From the IMG/VR virus record IMGVR_UViG_3300035675_000001: 64,000 bases of DNA; one strand, given 5' to 3'. This DNA comes from a virus. Taxonomy: Duplodnaviria > Caudoviricetes. The notes beneath the pieces are model-generated. The model saw only the letters and a list, made by a program, of their open reading frames with translations, did not search any database and was not told the DNA's origin. A program made the translations under genes and the position numbers. This document shows, one piece after another, positions 1,701 through 53,435 of the stretch (position 1 is its first letter; each line of letters begins with the position of its first letter).

Positions 1701-4027
1701 TCGACTTCGTTGTTCAGGATAACGTCGCCGATGCGAAGAAGTTCAGTTTCGACCGCTGACAGCATCTTGGTCGTATTGCCGGGGGTGTCGAGGGCCACAC
1801 GGTTGACGCCGACCACGCCGCTGATTGCCGCGATGACCTCAGTGATATTGGACTTGGAACCGACGATGCCGGATACCTCGCTGGCATAAATCGGAGAGCC
1901 GATTTGGAGGCCGTCGCCCCAGGCGCGAATCGCGGAACGAATCTCCCGGCGCTTGCTCTGAGACGTGTCGCCGGTGTAGCCCACGTAAATGTTTACAGTT
2001 TTGTCCGAAGCGTAGCCGACGATGGGAATGAGCTTCATGCTCAAGTCGCCGGGCACGCCCTTGATCCAAAGCGTGATCTGGCCGGTGAGCAGGTTGATCG
2101 TCGAGGGATAGTCGAGCGTGCCGCTCAGGTTGTCGCCAAACACTTGGGCGGTGCCGGGGATGATGCCGGGCACGACCGTCAATTCTTGGATGCCCAGGAA
2201 CAGGCGCACGGACCAGGCCGAAATCGGATAGATCACGAGCTGCGCGGAATACTGGCTCACCGTCACCTGGTCGTAGGTGCTGTAAACCGGAGTGCCGACC
2301 GACTGCTTGCTGAGCGCGTAAACAAACTCCTGGTCGGGTCGCGTCCACAGCTCCAGCGAGTTGGACGGATACAGGTCCGAAGTCGGCGTGGACATGTTGA
2401 TCGTATCGACGCCGTAAACCTCGTCGAGCGCCCGGACCAGGTTGGAGTAGAGCACCGGCTGGCCGGGCCGGAGCACGTCCACAAAGCTGTTGAGCGTGTC
2501 CTGAACCAGCAGCCCAGTATCGGTGACGCTGAACCCGGTGAAGACCTTGTAGCGCACGCTGACCGGGATGGGCCTGGCGGTGCCGTCGCCCAGGCGGACC
2601 AGATCGGTGCCGATGGCCTTCGTCTGCATGTAGTTCTCCAGGTCGATCTTTTGCGAAGCTGTCAAGTTGACCAGTGTGCCATTGGGTCCGCTCGTCCAGG
2701 CGTAGATGAAGACGAGATTGCCCTCCAAGAGCGAGTTCTCCGTCCGCACTGTGGCGCGGGCAAAGGTGACGCCCGGATACATCATGGCGATGGTCTGGTA
2801 ATCTTCTAAGGTTACCGCCCGGTCGTTGGCCCGTGTGGCGGCGGGGATGTTGACCCGCGCTTCCTCCAGGGTTTCAGCCTCGCGCCCGCCCGATCCGGCG
2901 TTTGTCCGGTTCGTAATCGCAATGGTGATCGGGTTGTTTGTGGAGCTAATCAGCCCGGTAATGGACGTGCTGATGGCGTTGATCTCGACGTTGCCTGCGG
3001 ACCCGCCGCCCACCCGGTAAGTGACGTTGATAGTCGCATCCGTAGGGATGACGGCTCCCAGGGTGCCGTCTCCAAAGATGATGAGCGGCTGGCCGGAAGC
3101 GGTGGTTTTGAAGACGAAATCGGTGGAGTCGCCGGTGGACTTGGCAAAGCTGGTAACCTGGTTCCAGATCGCACCGTTGACTACGACCTGAACAGAGCCT
3201 TCGATGACGGGGGTGGTGCTCAGCTTGACGACAAAAGAGGGAGTGGAATCCGAAGGCGACACGAAGCTATCGACCACGGTCAATCCCTGGACGCAGTTGA
3301 TGCGCTGGTCGTAGATCGTCGCCGTCACGGACGCCTGGATGCTGCCCTCGTAGGGGGTGGACAGAATCAGCCTGTTGTTCGTGATGGCCCCCGGCGATGC
3401 CTGGATGTCCTGGATCAAGTAGGTGTCCAGCTCGCCTGACACCTTGAAAACCTGGCCCGGTTGGACGAAATCAGCCAGGTTGATGGTGGTGTCGAGCAGA
3501 TCGACGTTCGACGAACCGGGTGTCACCAGGGCGAAGGTTGACAGCACGCTGGCACCTGTGGCCGAAGGGGAAATCGTGACGATGGGCGTGACCGGCGTCG
3601 TGTTGCCCGGCAGAATGAAATAGTCCTTCTCGACCTCGAACGGGATGGAATCCTGGGAGGAACTGCGGATGACGGTGCCCTTGGAAATGGTCACGGTCGC
3701 GCTCTCCAGGGCTGCCGTGATGGTCGCTTCGCAAGACACCGATGCGGCGGTCGGCCCGCGCAACTCGTATCCGGTCAGGCTGCCGATGTTCACGGCAGAC
3801 TCCCGCAGGGTCATCGTGTTGATGTAGTTCTCGCCCGCCGCCCGGTTGACCAGGAAGGCCATCGTGGCGGTTGACCAGGCGATCAGATCGACCAGAACGA
3901 TCCCGAAAGAGTTGTTCAGGAAGTCGTTCCAGACGCGGGGATACCGAGCGCGAACGCGCTGGAGGAGCGCGTCCTTGTGCGCCTGGTAATCGACGCGGAT
4001 AAATCGTAGCGTATTCTCTGTCGCCAT
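1697..4027 (-). CDS. Baseplate wedge protein (baseplate J / T4 gp6-like)
   Basis: DYQAHKDALLQRVR..YPRVWNDF, IIFGDGTLG..P, YRVGGGSAGNV, GSGGREAETLEEAR, RAVTLEDY. Confidence 0.9.
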   Translation of the reverse strand: MATENTLRFIRVDYQAHKDALLQRVRARYPRVWNDFLNNSFGIVLVDLIAWSTATMAFLVNRAAGENYINTMTLRESAVNIGSLTGYELRGPTAASVSCEATITAALESATVTISKGTVIRSSSQDSIPFEVEKDYFILPGNTTPVTPIVTISPSATGASVLSTFALVTPGSSNVDLLDTTINLADFVQPGQVFKVSGELDTYLIQDIQASPGAITNNRLILSTPYEGSIQASVTATIYDQRINCVQGLTVVDSFVSPSDSTPSFVVKLSTTPVIEGSVQVVVNGAIWNQVTSFAKSTGDSTDFVFKTTASGQPLIIFGDGTLGAVIPTDATINVTYRVGGGSAGNVEINAISTSITGLISSTNNPITIAITNRTNAGSGGREAETLEEARVNIPAATRANDRAVTLEDYQTIAMMYPGVTFARATVRTENSLLEGNLVFIYAWTSGPNGTLVNLTASQKIDLENYMQTKAIGTDLVRLGDGTARPIPVSVRYKVFTGFSVTDTGLLVQDTLNSFVDVLRPGQPVLYSNLVRALDEVYGVDTINMSTPTSDLYPSNSLELWTRPDQEFVYALSKQSVGTPVYSTYDQVTVSQYSAQLVIYPISAWSVRLFLGIQELTVVPGIIPGTAQVFGDNLSGTLDYPSTINLLTGQITLWIKGVPGDLSMKLIPIVGYASDKTVNIYVGYTGDTSQSKRREIRSAIRAWGDGLQIGSPIYASEVSGIVGSKSNITEVIAAISGVVGVNRVALDTPGNTTKMLSAVETELLRIGDVILNNEVD

Positions 4028-4031
4028 AGCC

Positions 4032-4226
4032 TTAACTACCCGTCACCAAATCGGCCATGATCGCCGCTACCTTTTCATCGTCCGGGTCTTCCTTGAGGCA
4101 TTCCACGGCGATCTTTGACACCTGCGCCAAAGTGTAAATCGCATCCCGCAAGGCCGGATCGTTGCTTTTTGCCGCCACTTTGGCCACAGCGGCGGCTTGT
4201 TGCCCGAAAGTCGTTCTCTTTCCCAT
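4032..4226 (-). CDS. Small hypothetical protein
   Basis: 64-aa helical ORF (MGKRTTFG...LVTGS) filling the gap between two minus-strand genes. Confidence 0.5.
   Translation of the reverse strand: MGKRTTFGQQAAAVAKVAAKSNDPALRDAIYTLAQVSKIAVECLKEDPDDEKVAAIMADLVTGS
4033..4039 (-). promoter_or_regulatory. GTAGTTA element (putative late promoter) before the baseplate gene
   Basis: GGGTAGTTAAGGCT-ATG, 5-nt spacer. Confidence 0.6.
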
Positions 4227-4650: not shown

Positions 4651-4694
4651 GCCATAGATACGAAGTAGAAATTGCTTACAATTTTGAGTTCTGC

Positions 4695-6356
4695 TTGAAT
4701 GTGAATGTGACCGACGAAAAACCAGTGGCGGAAATCATGGGGCACTTTGTGCTCCAGGAGGCCCGCGCCAAACAAGTCACTGCCCTGGAATACATTGAAC
4801 GCAAGTATTATGAGGGCTTTAAGGACATTGTGATCGCCGCTCCCACGGGCATTGGCAAGTCCGCGATTGGGGCGACCGCCTGCATGTGGTCGAACAGTCT
4901 CGACGAGGATGGCGACAACGGGGGCTACTACCTGGTCACGCAGAAGATGCTCCAGGACCAGCTCCAGCGGGACATCCCCAAATACCGGATGACCGACGCC
5001 GCCCGGCAGTGCTGCTCGATCAAGTCAGCCTCCGAATACTCCTGCCCGAAGCACGGCAACTGCGCCTTCGGCATGAGCCGAAAGACCAAGTGCGCCTGCG
5101 TCGGCCAGGGCACCTGCGCCTACGTCCGCGCCCGGATGGCGTTTGGCAGGGCGAAGATGGCGGTAACCAACTACCCCTACCTGTTCACCGAGCATCAGCT
5201 CGTCAACAAACTCTTGCCCAGGAAGGTGCTGGTCCTGGACGAGTGCCACAGCCTGGAGCGCCAGATTCTCAAGTTCGTCGAAATCAACATCACCCAGGAA
5301 AGCCTCCGAAAGTGGGCCAGAACCATCAAGCAGGTGCCCCACTTTGATGACGTGGTGGAGTTCGCTAACTACTTGTTGAACACCTACTTGCCGACCATCA
5401 AGCCGCGCCTGGAAGCCTTGATCGAGTGGGAGTCAACCTCCGACTCGGAACAAGACCGCCAGTTGAACCAGGAGAAGCTGGACCTGCAAAAGCACTACGG
5501 CCAGGTCTTGTCCGGGGCCAAGCTGGTCATCAACGACCCCAAAAACTGGGTGTTCTGGCAAGAGGAAGACCGGCACGGCAACCTCGAAGCTCTCGCCAAA
5601 CCTCTTGACGCTTCTCCGTTTGGTCAAGAGTTGATCTTCGAGATGGGCCGCGTCCGCATCTTCATGTCCGCTTACCCCGGCAGCAAGAAGGTGTTCTGCG
5701 ACAGCCTGGGCCTGGACAGCAACCGCGTAGCCTGGCTGAACCTGAACAGCACCTTCCCCGTCGAGAACCGGCAGATTTTCCTGACCACGATTGGCTCGAT
5801 GAGCCGGAGGAACCGGGATGACACCATGCCCGCCTTCCTGCGGTTCACGGCGAAAATCATGGAAACCCACTACGACACCAAGGGGATCATCCACTGCAAC
5901 AGCTACGAGCTGGGCAAAGCCATCTACGATGCCTTCCGTGGCACCGAGCACGGTGCCCGGCTGCTCTTTCCCCAGTCTTCCGATGAACGCGACCCGACGT
6001 TCGCCCGGCACAAAGTGACCCCCGCGCCGACCGTCATCATCAGCCCATCCATGACCGAAGGGTTCGACTTTGCCGAAGACCTGGCCCGCTGGCAGATCAT
6101 CGCCAAGGTGCCCTACCCTTACCTGGGGGACCGCCAGGTCGCCGCCAAGAAAGACATCAACGCCGACTGGTATGACCTCCAGGCGGTCATGTCGATCATC
6201 CAGGCGTGCGGGCGCATCGTCCGGTCGGATACGGATATAGGCCAGACCTACATCCTGGACAGCGATTTTCTCCAGCTTTACGAGCGGCAGAGTCACATGT
6301 TTCCCCGGTGGTGGACGGATGCCCTGGTATGGCCTAAACGGAAGGGTAGTCGGTAA
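4695..6356 (+). CDS. dinG: DinG/YoaA-family (XPD-like) SF2 DNA helicase
   Basis: APTGIGKS Walker A, Cys-rich Fe-S region, LVLDECH, SPSMTEGFDF, IIQACGRIVRS..D.G..YILD. Confidence 0.9.
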   Translation: MNVNVTDEKPVAEIMGHFVLQEARAKQVTALEYIERKYYEGFKDIVIAAPTGIGKSAIGATACMWSNSLDEDGDNGGYYLVTQKMLQDQLQRDIPKYRMTDAARQCCSIKSASEYSCPKHGNCAFGMSRKTKCACVGQGTCAYVRARMAFGRAKMAVTNYPYLFTEHQLVNKLLPRKVLVLDECHSLERQILKFVEINITQESLRKWARTIKQVPHFDDVVEFANYLLNTYLPTIKPRLEALIEWESTSDSEQDRQLNQEKLDLQKHYGQVLSGAKLVINDPKNWVFWQEEDRHGNLEALAKPLDASPFGQELIFEMGRVRIFMSAYPGSKKVFCDSLGLDSNRVAWLNLNSTFPVENRQIFLTTIGSMSRRNRDDTMPAFLRFTAKIMETHYDTKGIIHCNSYELGKAIYDAFRGTEHGARLLFPQSSDERDPTFARHKVTPAPTVIISPSMTEGFDFAEDLARWQIIAKVPYPYLGDRQVAAKKDINADWYDLQAVMSIIQACGRIVRSDTDIGQTYILDSDFLQLYERQSHMFPRWWTDALVWPKRKGSR

Positions 6357-6398: not shown

Positions 6399-6405
6399 GT
6401 AGTTA
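6399..6405 (+). promoter_or_regulatory. GTAGTTA element before the head-like gene cluster
   Basis: Intergenic, 7 nt before TTG 6413. Confidence 0.55.
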
Positions 6406-38545: not shown

Positions 38546-39007
38546 TCACCACAGCCCAACCGGGCAGTATTCCGTGGCCAGACCCGCCTTGGTGTAGCAG
38601 ACACACTTGCAGTATTGGCAGTAGTAGCCCTTGAACTGTCCACACTTGTTACTCTGGCAGACCTGGTAGCGTTGCGCGTGGTCCGCCTTGGACATGACCG
38701 GCATCCCCGCCGCGATCCACCGAGCCATTGACTCCTCAAAATTCTTGACGACCTGCGGCCAGGTGAGCACCGGCAGCGCATTGGGGTCCACTGGCGCACC
38801 GCAGCCCGCGCACCCGCCCGTCCCTTTTGGTTTGACGACCCTGCCGTTGTCCGGCGCGTAATCTGCCGACAGGATCGGCTCGAACTTACGCATGGGGCAC
38901 CCAGCGGAACTCTGGAGCGCGTGCCCGCGCAGACAGACGCCATCCCACTCGGAACAGACCTTGCAATGCTGCTCCAAACGAAAGTAGAAGATTTCTCTCG
39001 GAATCAT
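38546..39007 (-). CDS. Cys-rich protein (DUF6171-like C-terminus)
   Basis: CKVC, CAGC, CQSNKC...CQYCKC..K.....CP.G.W. Confidence 0.6.
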   Translation of the reverse strand: MIPREIFYFRLEQHCKVCSEWDGVCLRGHALQSSAGCPMRKFEPILSADYAPDNGRVVKPKGTGGCAGCGAPVDPNALPVLTWPQVVKNFEESMARWIAAGMPVMSKADHAQRYQVCQSNKCGQFKGYYCQYCKCVCYTKAGLATEYCPVGLW

Positions 39008-39090
39008 AAATGTTTACAAACAAATTCTTAACTTTTTCTTGGCCTTGAATCCTTTTTGTCCACCTTGGTCAAGTAGGTAGCGCAGAGATT

Positions 39091-40065
39091 ATGGCCTGGA
39101 TTATCGAAAGCCCGGCAATGCGCCGTGTGCATGAACTGACGAAGCAAATCGGACCTTCCACGGCTCCTGTGCTGATCTCTGGTGAGACAGGCACAGGCAA
39201 GGAAGTGATCGCCGAGATGATCCAGTTTTATAGTGAACGGAAGAACAGTCCCTTCATTCGCGTCAACTGCGCGGCCATCCCCAAAGACCTCCTGGAGTCC
39301 GAACTGTTCGGCTCGGTGCGCGGTGCCTACACCGGGTCCATTGTGGACCGGCGCGGGCTGTTCCAGGCAGCGGACACGGGCACGATCTACCTCGACGAGC
39401 TTTCCGAGATGACGTTCGACTTGCAGGCCAAGCTGCTTCGCGTCGTCGAGAACCAGATGATCCGGCGCGTGGGCGACACGGTGTGGAACAAGGTGGACGT
39501 GCGGATCATTTCGTCGATCAACCGGCCTCCCGATCTGTGCGTCGAACTCAAAGTCCTGCGCGACGATCTCTACTACCGCATCGGCACGTTTCACATCCGG
39601 GTTCCCGCGATGCGGCAGCGCGTGCCCGACATCCTGCCGCTCTGCCGCGCCTACCTGGAGAAGTATAGCGCCGAACAAAAGCGCGTGCCGCCTGTCCTCA
39701 GCCCGGAAGTCGTGGCCATCCTCCAGGGCTACCACTGGCCCGGCAACGTCCGCCAGATCGTCAACGAAATGCACCGGCTTGCCGTCATCAGCAAGGCCAC
39801 TGCGCTCCCGGAGGACATCGACTTTCATCTGCAAAAAGAACCTGATTTCAACACGCCGCTGAGCCGCATGGAGCTGATGGAGAAGACCACCATCGAGAAC
39901 GTCCTGATCGAAACCAACGGCAACAAGCTCGAAGCCGCCAAGCGACTGGGCATCGGAAGACAAACGCTCTATAACAAGCTTCACCGCTACAACATCGAAA
40001 CGATCAAAGAAAAACCGCCAGGCGACGAATCACCTGGCGGCAACCAACCCTTCCCTTTGCCGTAA
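39091..40065 (+). CDS. Sigma-54 enhancer-binding protein (AAA+ plus Fis-type HTH, no regulatory domain)
   Basis: GETGTGKE, VNCAAIP..LLESELFG, GAYTGS, IYLDE, DLYYRI, WPGNVRQ, GNKLEAAKRLGIGRQTLYNKL. Confidence 0.92.
   Translation: MAWIIESPAMRRVHELTKQIGPSTAPVLISGETGTGKEVIAEMIQFYSERKNSPFIRVNCAAIPKDLLESELFGSVRGAYTGSIVDRRGLFQAADTGTIYLDELSEMTFDLQAKLLRVVENQMIRRVGDTVWNKVDVRIISSINRPPDLCVELKVLRDDLYYRIGTFHIRVPAMRQRVPDILPLCRAYLEKYSAEQKRVPPVLSPEVVAILQGYHWPGNVRQIVNEMHRLAVISKATALPEDIDFHLQKEPDFNTPLSRMELMEKTTIENVLIETNGNKLEAAKRLGIGRQTLYNKLHRYNIETIKEKPPGDESPGGNQPFPLP
40006..40040 (-). terminator. Probable intrinsic terminator for the minus-strand lipoprotein/holin-like operon, embedded in the bEBP 3' end
   Basis: CCGCCAGG-N10-CCTGGCGG followed on the minus strand by TTTTTCTTT. 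Confidence 0.65.
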
Positions 40066-40485
40066 TTACGTGGTCGGAGCTGCCGGTTTGGCAGCCGGTG
40101 GTTCCTCACCGCCGCCGAATCCCGTCAACACCAATACCTGCTTGGACGCTTCGCGCAGGCCGACGCCTGCCGCACCGCAGAGCGCACCAAGTTCCCACGA
40201 ACTGTGGGGAATGACGCCCGACTTCGCCAAGAGCCAGTCCGCACCTACACCGATAACCGCAGCCAGAAACGGCCAGGTTACCTTGGGCAAGGACGGAAGC
40301 ACCTTTTTGATGCCAAGCACCACCAGCGGCACCACCAGGACAATCAGCCCGTTCCAGATGTTGACCAGGACGGGGTTGACCGGGGTTGACGCCGCAGGCA
40401 CGGCATTGGTGACTTGGGCGAGGGCCACAAGCGTAAATGCCAGCAGGACGGCGCAGGCCACTGTGATTTGCTTTAGTGTCTTCAT
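40066..40485 (-). CDS. Multi-TM membrane protein, holin-like
   Basis: N-terminal signal/TM plus 3 short TMs (IWNGLIVLVVPLVVLGIKK..., WPFLAAVIGVGA, GALCGAAGVGLRE) and a polar tail. Confidence 0.55.
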   Translation of the reverse strand: MKTLKQITVACAVLLAFTLVALAQVTNAVPAASTPVNPVLVNIWNGLIVLVVPLVVLGIKKVLPSLPKVTWPFLAAVIGVGADWLLAKSGVIPHSSWELGALCGAAGVGLREASKQVLVLTGFGGGEEPPAAKPAAPTT

Positions 40486-40486
40486 A

Positions 40487-40530
40487 GTAGTTTACTCGTT
40501 GCCCCACACCGTGGGGCCGAGAGTAACTAC
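40487..40530 (-). promoter_or_regulatory. Long hairpin overlapping a GTAGTTA element and the translation start region
   Basis: mRNA GUAGUUACUC-UCG-GCCCCAC-GGU-GUGGGGC-AAC-GAGUAAACUAC-U-AUG. Confidence 0.7.
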
Positions 40531-40532
40531 GA

Positions 40533-41024
40533 TTACTGTGCCCCCTGTTTGATCTGGTCGATGCCCTTGAGGCCATCGCTCACACCGTCAACCAGGGCTT
40601 GAGCCAGCATCTTCCACCCGACCTGTTCCTCCAGCCCGGCCTGAACGTATTGCTGGCCAAAGGCAGCGTAGGCTGAAAGCAGAGGCGTGATAATCAACTG
40701 AGCCTCCGGGGTCTTCAACTCCTTCACAGGCAAGGCGTAAATCTTGGCCTGGAGTGCGGACGGCGACATGTTTGTGGACAGGACGAACTCCTGGAGAGCC
40801 GTCTGAACGACGCTGATCCAGGTCACGGAGTTCTTGTCCTTCGTGTAACCATAAACCACTGCGCCAGCGACAGATGTTCGCAGGATCGGGGCGAGCTTTT
40901 CAGCCGCAGCCGGATCGAGCACTTTCTTGCCGGAGGACGTGGTTGTGCAACCTGTAAACACCACCGGTGAGCCAATCGCCAGGATTGCGGTGAGTGCCAA
41001 TGCGAACAGTCTGTTCTTCTTCAT
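40533..41024 (-). CDS. Lipoprotein (possible lysis/spanin-like or surface protein)
   Basis: Signal peptide with lipobox FTGC, followed by an all-helical body. Confidence 0.65.
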   Translation of the reverse strand: MKKNRLFALALTAILAIGSPVVFTGCTTTSSGKKVLDPAAAEKLAPILRTSVAGAVVYGYTKDKNSVTWISVVQTALQEFVLSTNMSPSALQAKIYALPVKELKTPEAQLIITPLLSAYAAFGQQYVQAGLEEQVGWKMLAQALVDGVSDGLKGIDQIKQGAQ

Positions 41025-41071
41025 AGTTTTGATGTTTGTTTTCGCGGATCATCCGCCCTGTAATTACTCTG

Positions 41072-41539
41072 ATGGCGAGCACGCTGATACCGAAGCTCAA
41101 GGCCGAGATCGAGGCGCTTGAGGCGCAATACCAAGCTGCCGAGGACCGGATCGAGCGGTCAGGCGGCGTGGACTATCGCGGGGAGCTGGTCACGCTCCGA
41201 AGAAAATTGGACGACAAGCGGCATAAGCTGGAGATGTGGTCGAAACTCTGGCAGGCCGCTGAGTCCAACAGCCGCACCAACGCTGCCAAGCTCATGGTGG
41301 AAGTCCTTCTCGCTGATGACGATGTTGACACCATCGAGGACATCGCCGCCGACTTCGTGGAAGACATCGGGGTGGGTCGGCATGACTGGATGACCAACTG
41401 GGCGCTTTTGCAGGACAAGGGAGAGGCTTTGCCCAGGGTCCAGGCTTACCTGGACGAGTATGGCATCGCCGCCGACGCGCAAAAAGTTGTAAACTTTATC
41501 GACCACATGCTGGTCAAGCGGCCTGGCCGCTGGAAATAA
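41072..41539 (+). CDS. Coiled-coil protein with a variant acidic tag
   Basis: AAKLMVEVLLADDDVDTIEDIA. Confidence 0.5.
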   Translation: MASTLIPKLKAEIEALEAQYQAAEDRIERSGGVDYRGELVTLRRKLDDKRHKLEMWSKLWQAAESNSRTNAAKLMVEVLLADDDVDTIEDIAADFVEDIGVGRHDWMTNWALLQDKGEALPRVQAYLDEYGIAADAQKVVNFIDHMLVKRPGRWK

Positions 41540-51543: not shown

Positions 51544-53284
51544 GGCCCTGGCCATCCTCGCCCGCGTGCTGGAGTCCGACGAAGATTTCGTCGGCAAGGA
51601 CATGGACATCCACATGCCCTACGGCATCGGCAGCCGCGTGAAGGTCACCGATGGTGACTACACCGGCGAGCCAGGCACGGTCATGGGCATGGGGAACCTG
51701 GGCAACAACGTGCGCGGCTTTTGGGTCCACCTGGACGGGGCTGACGACGACATCAACAGCGCGATCCTCTACCCCGCCGACCGCCTGGCTCCCGCCCACG
51801 ACCTCAAGTATCCTCCCGGCATCCTCTGGCGCATCACCCAGGGCGAGTTCGCCGGGCGCAAGGCCATCCTGACCGGCACCAACAAGGCCGGAAGCATGTT
51901 CGTTCACGTCGAGGGGCACCCGGACGACTGGCAGATGATTTCCATGCGCCAGAACGAGTTGGAGCCGCTGGCCGAATCCGAGCTGATGGGCGACGAGGAC
52001 GACGTAAAAGCTGTGGCGGGCTACGTCACGCCGGAGTTGCAGCTCGACACCGATCCCAAGTCGAAGAACCAGCAGACTTTTGTTTACGCCTACGGCGAGT
52101 TCATTGGGACCGTTTCCGAAGACCTGGCCACGCCGGGCGACTGGGTGGTGACCTTCGTGCCCAACAAGGGCTACATCTGGAAGCGCGGGTTCAGGACCAG
52201 AGAGGATGCCGCAATGGCGATCTGGCAGGACCGCATCGGCATGAAGAAGCTGCGCGAGGAGGTCGAAGATGACGAGGGCTTCAAGGACGTTTACAGCGGC
52301 GAATACCCGACGTTCAACTTCCTGGTGAAGCGCGATCCGCAGGGCCGGGAGCAGTGGGGCAGCGGGGTGTGGAATGTTTACATCGACGGCTCAGAGCTGG
52401 GCATGGAGCACGTCCCCCACATGTGGATCGGCGAGATCGAAGCCGTGCGCGGCGAGGGCAACCAGCTCCAAGGCTGGCGCATCAGCAACCTGCCCTACCC
52501 GTCATCGCCCAAAGCCATCCCTGAGCTTTTTCCGCAGCAGCTCGACGCCGCCCGCTACATTTGGGGCGAGCGCCTGCGCCCGCGCAACGAGGCCAAGGAC
52601 CATCAGCGAGTTCGCCGCCTGGTCGGCAAGCTGATTGACGAAGCCGATGAGGACGAGCCTGACTTCAAGGAGTTCGCCTTCGATCCCGTGGCCAGCGCCG
52701 TAAGCGCCCTGGAGGGAGCCGGGTTCAAGATCGAGCGAGCCGACCGTGAGGGCGACGACATCTTCCTGCGGTTCACCTGGCCCGCGTTCAACGCCGTCGC
52801 CTACATCAATGGGGCCAAGCGGGCGCTGGAAGCCATCCGGCCTTTCATCAACGTGAGGCACGGCGACTACCGCGTGGACCGGGAGCTGGACGAGCAGGGC
52901 CAGAAGATCGCCCGCATGTTCATCCGCCGAAAGGATGACCAGGCACCCTGGCTCTGGAAGATCGAGCGCATCCCCAACTATTACGACCACAATGTCGCGC
53001 CGGGGGACGTGGTGAACACGTCGGCGGAATACAAGATTTTCTTCAATGGCCAGGAAGCAGGACTGTTCTTGGCACCGAACTATGACGTAGCGGAGCGCGT
53101 CCGGGAGGAGATGGCCCAACTGCACAAGGTGCATGGGTTTTACCCTCCTGGATGGGACGCGCCCGGTAACGCATGGGGCAAGGGCCACGCCATTGAGTGG
53201 TGGAGACGCAACCGTAAAAAGTTAGGCAACGTCGCCAGAAGCAACGAACCGTTTTTTGATCGGGGCCTCCTGGCGACCCGATAA
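51536..53284 (+). CDS. Four-tag polyprotein-like protein with two KOW/SH3-like units
   Basis: Tags VLESDEDFVGKDM, LAESELMGDEDDVKAV, LREEVEDDEGFKDV, LIDEADEDEPDFKEF; RVKVTDGDYTG..G and WRITQGEFAG..A. Confidence 0.65.
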   Translation: MSEALAILARVLESDEDFVGKDMDIHMPYGIGSRVKVTDGDYTGEPGTVMGMGNLGNNVRGFWVHLDGADDDINSAILYPADRLAPAHDLKYPPGILWRITQGEFAGRKAILTGTNKAGSMFVHVEGHPDDWQMISMRQNELEPLAESELMGDEDDVKAVAGYVTPELQLDTDPKSKNQQTFVYAYGEFIGTVSEDLATPGDWVVTFVPNKGYIWKRGFRTREDAAMAIWQDRIGMKKLREEVEDDEGFKDVYSGEYPTFNFLVKRDPQGREQWGSGVWNVYIDGSELGMEHVPHMWIGEIEAVRGEGNQLQGWRISNLPYPSSPKAIPELFPQQLDAARYIWGERLRPRNEAKDHQRVRRLVGKLIDEADEDEPDFKEFAFDPVASAVSALEGAGFKIERADREGDDIFLRFTWPAFNAVAYINGAKRALEAIRPFINVRHGDYRVDRELDEQGQKIARMFIRRKDDQAPWLWKIERIPNYYDHNVAPGDVVNTSAEYKIFFNGQEAGLFLAPNYDVAERVREEMAQLHKVHGFYPPGWDAPGNAWGKGHAIEWWRRNRKKLGNVARSNEPFFDRGLLATR

Positions 53285-53285
53285 C

Positions 53286-53435
53286 ATGACCGAAAGAGAT
53301 GAACAACTTTGGAAAGAAAGAGTAAGCAGGGAACACCCGGAACGCGGGCTGGCTATCATCATACTTGGTAGCACCCTGCTCTACGGAACGCTGACAGTAT
53401 TTTTGTTGATTAAACTTTTTAACTACTTGCTATGA
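53286..53435 (+). CDS. Small membrane protein (49 aa; below the ORF track cutoff)
   Basis: MTERDEQLWKE...GLAIIILGSTLLYGTLTVFLLIKLFNYLL; stop overlaps the next ATG. Confidence 0.5.
   Translation: MTERDEQLWKERVSREHPERGLAIIILGSTLLYGTLTVFLLIKLFNYLL

Follow-up and report, generated by a model that had tools for sequence, protein, structure and literature searches.

The DNA analysed here is a 64,000-nt stretch, called the window throughout, of an uncultured wetland jumbo phage (Caudoviricetes; IMG/VR record IMGVR_UViG_3300035675_000001), with a GC content of 60% (58-60% for the phage). On its minus strand a predicted lipoprotein gene is followed, after a spacer of 47 nt, by a gene for a small membrane protein (Table 1), and the same gene order is conserved in relatives. 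The terminator scan placed an intrinsic terminator behind the second gene and found none between the two. The lipoprotein has no Pfam or PHROG match. Judging from profile searches, the regulated gene appears to encode a holin-like small membrane protein: phrog_1129 is matched by 12 of the 13 members of its family (best E 1.1e-5), and the Pfam profile Phage_holin_5_1 gives a weak match in one relative. The N-terminus of the protein resembles a signal peptide, and no endolysin gene was identified adjacent to it.

Table 1. Features at and around the junction of the lipoprotein and holin-like genes, with positions in the window.
Feature	Position	Strand	Description and basis
Palindrome GTAATTAC	41060..41067	.	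in a 47-nt divergent intergenic region; 5 nt before ATG 41072 (+), 36 nt before ATG 41024 (-)
Lipoprotein gene (predicted)	40533..41024	-	163 aa, signal peptide ends FTGC; start ATG 41024, stop TAA 40535-40533; ORF and translation
Long hairpin	40487..40530	-	about 44 nt; sequence, RNAfold, covariation, covariance model
GTAGTTA, candidate -10-type promoter element	40524..40530	-	start of 5' arm; enrichment, position, conservation
5' arm GUAGUUACUC	40530-40521	-	after TAA stop and UC; followed by loop UCG
Predicted transcript start zone	40517..40520	-	+4 to +7 past motif; from the 4-nt modal motif-ATG/GTG spacing (first coding base +5)
Inner stem GCCCCAC / GUGGGGC	40517-40511 / 40507-40501	-	perfect 7 bp; loop GGU 40510-40508
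3' arm GAGUAAACUAC	40497-40487	-	preceded by AAC; followed by U 40486 and AUG 40485-40483
Start AUG of holin-like gene	40483..40485	-	1 nt past 3' arm; MKT(L/M)K N-terminus conserved in alignment
Holin-like membrane protein	40066..40485	-	139 aa; phrog_1129 holin match, E 9e-4
Intrinsic terminator	40005..40041	-	canonical, 12-bp stem and T run; terminator scan; closes the two-gene minus-strand unit

The terminator sits within the coding 3' end of a convergent gene for a sigma-54 activator without receiver (39091-40065 (+); Pfam Sigma54_activat, E 3e-58). The holin-like and activator genes converge without a spacer at a second GTAATTAC, which here consists of two back-to-back TAA stops (40062-40069). 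Compared with the relatives L001, L004 and L005, the activator gene is a reverse-orientation insertion that separates the holin-like gene from a gene for a Cys-rich protein of 153 aa (38546-39007). In those relatives the holin-like gene is immediately followed by an ORF on its own strand, about 150-166 aa long; the L001 copy, the sole one compared, is 75% identical to 38546-39007. The sigma-54 -24/-12 promoter pattern occurs in the window less often than by chance. In L001 the holin-like gene itself (3553-4092; identical in L013-L016) either has about 40 extra residues after MKTLK or begins instead at an internal ATG immediately ahead of the protein's conserved hydrophobic segment.

Within the spacer, the minus-strand RNA can fold into a long hairpin. 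Its outer helix has 10 bp and one bulged A, and GUAGUU in it pairs with AACUAC, the pairing ending 1 nt before the AUG. Re-reading of the sequence bears out the geometry given in a preliminary description of this DNA, namely an outer pairing of 10 bp with a single bulged A, a perfect 7-bp inner stem, a 3' arm that ends one nucleotide short of the AUG on the minus strand, and GTAGTTA as the opening of the 5' arm. RNAfold gives -27.1 kcal/mol for a 71-nt segment (z -3.45, 2/200 shuffles) and -25.5 kcal/mol for a 54-nt segment (z -5.36, 0/200 shuffles). In the minimum free energy structure the pairing is shifted to UCGUAGU with ACUAUGA, a second register that includes the AUG itself; the start is buried in both registers. 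By raw energy the hairpin is merely in the top ~1% of the 54-nt segments of the window (mean -14.0, sd 4.5, 1st percentile -24.9). Its stability alone is not exceptional, and its main support is conservation and covariation in relatives. An Rfam search of 39800-41300 returned only two sub-threshold chance matches elsewhere in the region, and no known RNA family.

Conservation and covariation of the hairpin

The relatives are 12 database homologues of the 139-aa protein (46-91% identity), and for most of them the upstream DNA was compared. GTAGTTA is present at the lipoprotein/holin-like junction in 10 of the 12. The long hairpin is kept at six loci: the window, L002, L003, L010, L011 and L008. 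At all six GUAGUU pairs with AACUA(C/U), ending 1 nt upstream of the AUG, and the six fold individually into the same hairpin (RNAfold, z -3.5 to -5.4, 0/200 shuffles each). The middle helix varies in sequence and retains complementarity (CTC/GAG, TACTC/GAGTA, TTCG/CGAA, TACTCG/CGAGTA, TTGC/GCAA). With 46% protein identity, L008 is the most distant; its inner stem, GTGCC-cgaaa-GGCAC, is unrelated, yet the outer GUAGUU/AACUAC-U-AUG is still present.

Three of the hairpins served to build a covariance model, which was searched against 127 kb of the window and its relatives. It matches exactly the six loci, and otherwise the reverse strands of two hairpins and two weak matches. In the model alignment of the six lineages 93.3% of cells are paired, versus 31-54% with partners slid, and five pairs (7 cells) carry compensatory changes on both sides, versus 0-1 in the slid controls; since the alignment was fitted to the structure model, these figures are somewhat inflated. 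The observed values are reached by 0-2 of 500 shuffles. Covariation in related phages, which the preliminary description had named as a check, is thus found, with five compensatory pairs over six lineages. On the evidence of these sequence comparisons, the hairpin is real and under selection.

Other relatives depart from this plan in different ways. L005 and L006 have a different hairpin that fills exactly the interval from the last motif base to the AUG; in L005 its arms are unrelated, and it still runs from 2 nt past the stop to the AUG. In L009 the motif lies 4 nt ahead of a GTG start, without a hairpin. L001 and L012 retain the motif and the inner hairpin, with a compensatory C-G to U-A change, and are without the masking helix; their leaders have an added second hairpin and a Shine-Dalgarno-like GAGGA. 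L004, L007 and L017 have neither the exact motif nor the hairpin. Apart from duplicates of the L001 type, protein-based scans of metagenome and viral contigs yielded a single distant jumbo phage, which lacks the hairpin. A scan of IMG/VR with the arm pattern gave 36 matches, and all 21 that were re-matched are AT-rich (GC 0.20-0.41) and are read as chance.

Contigs of four runs from one study, labelled metatranscriptomic and probably DNA, carry phage matches that cover only 40050-40489, that is, the holin-like ORF; two 31-nt partial matches also occur at 39719-39749, where the contigs otherwise diverge. The piece nearest the 5' end of the holin-like gene stops at 40489, leaving the hairpin and the lipoprotein gene uncovered; these matches count neither for nor against any of the readings.

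GTAGTTA as a candidate promoter word

GTAGTTA occurs 13 times in the window, versus 0.86 copies expected (0/100 shuffles). Eleven of the 13 have the sense orientation and precede a coding start by 0-38 nt (mode 4 nt), and several overlap the preceding stop codon; two of the genes preceded in this way encode baseplate wedge proteins. The copies at 5366-5372(-) and 53420-53426(-) are the antisense of AAC-TAC (Asn-Tyr) codons within genes and were rejected as artefacts. The one-mismatch variants GTAGTTG, GTAGTAA and GTAGTTC, which are enriched, and GTAGTCA are likewise mostly antisense to genes, consistent with an Asn-Tyr/Tyr codon artefact. The ORF that explains the copy at 53420-53426 is 59 aa long (53256-53435 (+)), has a clear hydrophobic helix, LAIIILGSTLLYGTLTVFLLIKLF, and overlaps the ATG of the next gene by ATGA.

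In G002, a relative of 35.7 kb, five of six GTAGTTA copies precede a start codon, three of them at 4-nt spacing; three copies are at positions matching window sites, one of these three being matched to the antisense-codon copy 53420-53426. The more distant relative G001 (238 kb) shows no GTAGTTA enrichment and has GTAGCTA at this junction. A looser family, GTAnnTA, has 28 members in the window, of which 18 stand ahead of coding starts. One of them, GTAGGTA (39073-39079 (+)), lies 11 nt before the sigma-54 activator gene. Another, at 4655-4661 (-), heads a divergent minus-strand gene as GTATCTA-tggc-ATG, with the spacing and the tggc found at some GTAGTTA sites, and the divergent gene of L005 likewise uses GTATCTA. 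The palindrome GTAATTAC upstream of the lipoprotein gene may be a two-way member of the family, to judge from its sequence; L001, L002 and L004 share it, and in L005 its place is taken by GTAGATAC. GTAATTAC and GTATCTA occupy divergent intergenic regions of 44-47 nt, in which they are the only conspicuous element. Given that transcripts of divergent genes must start within such short regions, the presence of motif variants there fits promoters.

Shine-Dalgarno sequences are rare upstream of the genes of the window. Because the spacing from motif to start varies from 4 to 38 nt and variants occupy divergent regions, a promoter word acting at the DNA level is favoured over a ribosome-binding signal. 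Enrichment, orientation, position and conservation thus fit GTAGTTA as a promoter word, and most GTAGTTA transcripts would be leaderless or near-leaderless. A purine stands at +5 or +6 past the motif in all relatives. The 4-nt gap between motif and start, of leaderless type, is shorter than the geometry of sigma-70 or of T4 gp55, and profiles of the gp55 family (phrog_234, phrog_12791) have no match in G001 and G002. A literature search for the literal word GTAGTTA returned primer matches only. The late promoters of other jumbo phages, AACA-N6-TA/G in AR9 and TATG in phiKZ, are also short single motifs at or near the transcript start, and AR9 leaders measure 26-491 nt (PMC5312081). The word used here is different, and unlike in AR9 most motif copies of the window are 4 nt from the start codon, which implies leaderless or near-leaderless RNAs.

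At the GTAGTTA copy at 6399, an AACTAC lies upstream, and the sequence does not fold significantly (z +0.2). Another word, TTTGTTTACA, is also enriched, with 17 matches at one mismatch or fewer versus 1.0 expected (e.g. 15493, 20460, 26473-, 51049). Some copies lie about 10-15 nt before start codons, e.g. 15513 and 20484, and the word may represent another promoter class.

Proposed masking of the start codon and its alternatives

What might the hairpin do? Contact with the start region is made by the outer helix only, that is, by GUAGUU itself, so an RNA beginning anywhere past the motif is unmasked whatever its exact start. Folded from after the motif, the RNAs of all six lineages have 11-12 unpaired nucleotides directly ahead of the AUG and the GC-rich inner stem at or near their 5' end. 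The preliminary description had proposed a comparison of long and short leaders, and its expectation holds at five of the six loci, where opening of the region -8 to +5 costs 5.7-6.9 kcal/mol in long leaders and 1.3-4.7 kcal/mol in short ones; in L010 the computed relief from the shortened leader is nil.

The best single explanation, to which we give a probability of roughly 0.45, is a masking hairpin of the T4 type with an embedded promoter. RNAs that contain the motif, having come through the lipoprotein gene, would have their initiation region buried by GUAGUU/AACUAC. In the DNA, GTAGTTA would serve as a virion/late promoter of the -10 type that consists of a single element and from which RNA polymerase would start a few bases past the motif, at about 40517-40520. 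The short transcripts would lack the 5' arm, carry the GC-rich inner stem-loop at their 5' end as a likely stabiliser, and expose the A-rich leader and the AUG. On read-through RNA, ribosomes ending the lipoprotein ORF would also open the helix, giving some coupled expression alongside. Promoter activity, the start of the transcript and a difference in time between the two kinds of transcript are what we infer in this explanation. In E. coli, mRNAs of the ompA type are stabilised by a 5'-terminal stem-loop; similarly, a GC-rich stem-loop would stand at or within a few nucleotides of the predicted 5' end in both the holin-like and the lipoprotein leaders.

For T4 genes e, soc, 49, I-TevI/II/III and segB and for Aeh1 mobE, hairpins are described that cover the translation start and whose 5' arm contains a late promoter; the long early transcripts of gene e are translated about 100-fold less (PMC3014915, PMC2988022). 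The precedent that the preliminary description had drawn from T4 e and I-TevI is apt, in that the architecture at the junction matches the design set out in PMC3014915 and PMC2988022. As in T4, the start of a late or lysis-type gene is buried on upstream transcripts and the structure is conserved among relatives. Unlike in T4, the promoter word is GTAGTTA and not TATAAATA, with a putative promoter activity, transcript start and timing here; the masked region has no Shine-Dalgarno sequence, only the AUG in an A-rich context; the phage is an uncultured jumbo phage; and a promoter of this same family may also serve the upstream gene.

This last difference bears on timing. Upstream of the lipoprotein gene is the same-family motif GTAATTAC, and the layout there parallels the holin-like leader: the motif is followed after 4-6 nt by a small GC hairpin, whose loop has 3 nt, and then by an A-rich leader and AACU-AUG-AAG. 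On the minus strand the GC hairpin begins at +5 after GTAATTAC; its fold alone is not significant (z -0.7). With a motif of the same family at the lipoprotein gene, both promoters may share a temporal class; there would then be no early transcript for the hairpin to silence, and the read-through transcripts may not be early ones. A timing switch on a lysis-type membrane gene had been claimed for this hairpin. Of that claim, the sequestered start, the selected hairpin (93% paired versus 31-54%) and the holin-like gene (12/13 with phrog_1129) stand, whereas the motif of the lipoprotein gene complicates the split into early and late. The observation is therefore confirmed and its T4-like interpretation partly supported.

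A selected AACUAC 1 nt from the start codon makes sense only if some RNAs contain the motif and others lack it. In this respect the hairpin offers evidence, at the level of sequence, on gene regulation in an uncultured phage: it would support GTAGTTA (family GTAnnTA) as the word for late or virion promoters in this jumbo-phage clade, with the predicted transcript start just downstream of the motif. By analogy, an unrelated lineage would then use the T4 trick of holding back a lysis-type gene, with another promoter word. At about 100 nt, the locus is compact and open to direct reporter testing.

Translational coupling has to be taken seriously as a rival or as an accompanying mechanism, although as the whole explanation we consider it rather unlikely. 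Synthesis of the holin-like protein would then depend on translation of the lipoprotein ORF: a ribosome at the lipoprotein stop would melt GUAGUU and so free AACUAC-U-AUG for initiation, and no promoter activity of the motif would be needed here. Coupling by the melting of a hairpin operates between the coat and replicase genes of MS2 and in the ribosomal protein operons of E. coli; as there, the downstream start is sequestered by sequence that the ribosome terminating upstream must unwind. The geometry is favourable, with the upstream stop within reach of the ribosome: it lies 2-3 nt before the motif in the window, L002, L010 and L011, and in L003, L008 and L005 it is the TAG within the motif. 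With a stop 0-3 nt from the 5' arm or inside it, the terminating ribosome must melt the outer helix, and therefore read-through RNAs would not be fully silent and the hairpin would act on the bicistronic RNA as a coupling device and not as an absolute block. Coupling also agrees with the L005 hairpin, which despite its different arms still fills the interval from 2 nt past the stop to the AUG, with the arrangement of both genes as a unit under one strong terminator, and with the rarity of Shine-Dalgarno sequences in the phage, through which internal starts may need help. However, it leaves unexplained why the exact motif is present in 10 of 12 relatives, including L001, L012 and L009, which have no masking helix, and why the 3' arm follows the motif and not some other sequence; L009 shows the ordinary 4-nt layout of motif and start without any hairpin. 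Unlike in MS2 and the ribosomal operons, the arm here is a recurrent, class-specific DNA motif.

Less likely than masking or coupling are a role in processing or stability and a role of the motif at the RNA level. The hairpin could, which we hold quite unlikely, be an RNA processing or stability element, either an RNase III-type cleavage site or a protective hairpin at the 3' end of the lipoprotein mRNA. In the RNase III version cleavage would release a translatable downstream RNA, as it does at the intercistronic sites of T7. A lower stem, a 3x3 internal loop and an upper stem, with about 17-19 bp in all (an interrupted stem of roughly 20 bp), would suit such a site; the hairpin comes immediately after the stop codon, and L001 and L012, which lack the outer helix, still have the inner GC hairpin. 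Yet a processing element would explain neither GTAGTTA as an arm nor the fixed distance of 1 nt to the AUG, and the hairpin has no Rfam match. Nor is it an intrinsic terminator: AACGAG follows the inner stem in place of a U tract, and the scan that found 40041-40005 does not list it.

GUAGUUA might instead be a signal in the RNA, a translation enhancer or a nuclease target in the manner of GGAG for the T4 RegB nuclease, with the hairpin regulating its availability. Many start codons do have the motif 4 nt upstream, in the position of a ribosome-binding site, in a phage with few Shine-Dalgarno sequences. We nevertheless judge this very unlikely: at 38 nt from the holin-like AUG and 8-16 nt from others the distance is too variable for a ribosome-binding signal, variants stand at the heads of divergent units, the long leader of L001 carries its own Shine-Dalgarno-like GAGGA, and we know of no complementarity of GUAGUUA to the usual 16S 3' tail.

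There is a slim chance that the hairpin hands over ribosomes: a spacer of 24-38 nt would be looped out, and the ribosome terminating on the lipoprotein ORF would move straight on to the start of the holin-like gene. In seven lineages, including L005, the upstream stop and the AUG are 3-5 nt apart across a conserved stem base; hand-over by a bridging stem would be a form of termination-reinitiation distinct from simple unmasking. A chance inverted repeat without function, for which one could cite the GC-rich genome and a raw energy merely in the top ~1% of segments, is in effect refuted by covariation: compensatory changes occur among loci whose proteins share 46-91% identity, and composition-matched z values are -3.5 to -5.4.

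The nucleotides before start codons show a further regularity. (A)ACT or nCT often stands directly ahead of the ATG, as at 40485, 41024, 34109, 42595, 33390, 4027, 58366 and 53432, which, together with the rarity of Shine-Dalgarno sequences, suggests a start context of another kind in the phage or its host.
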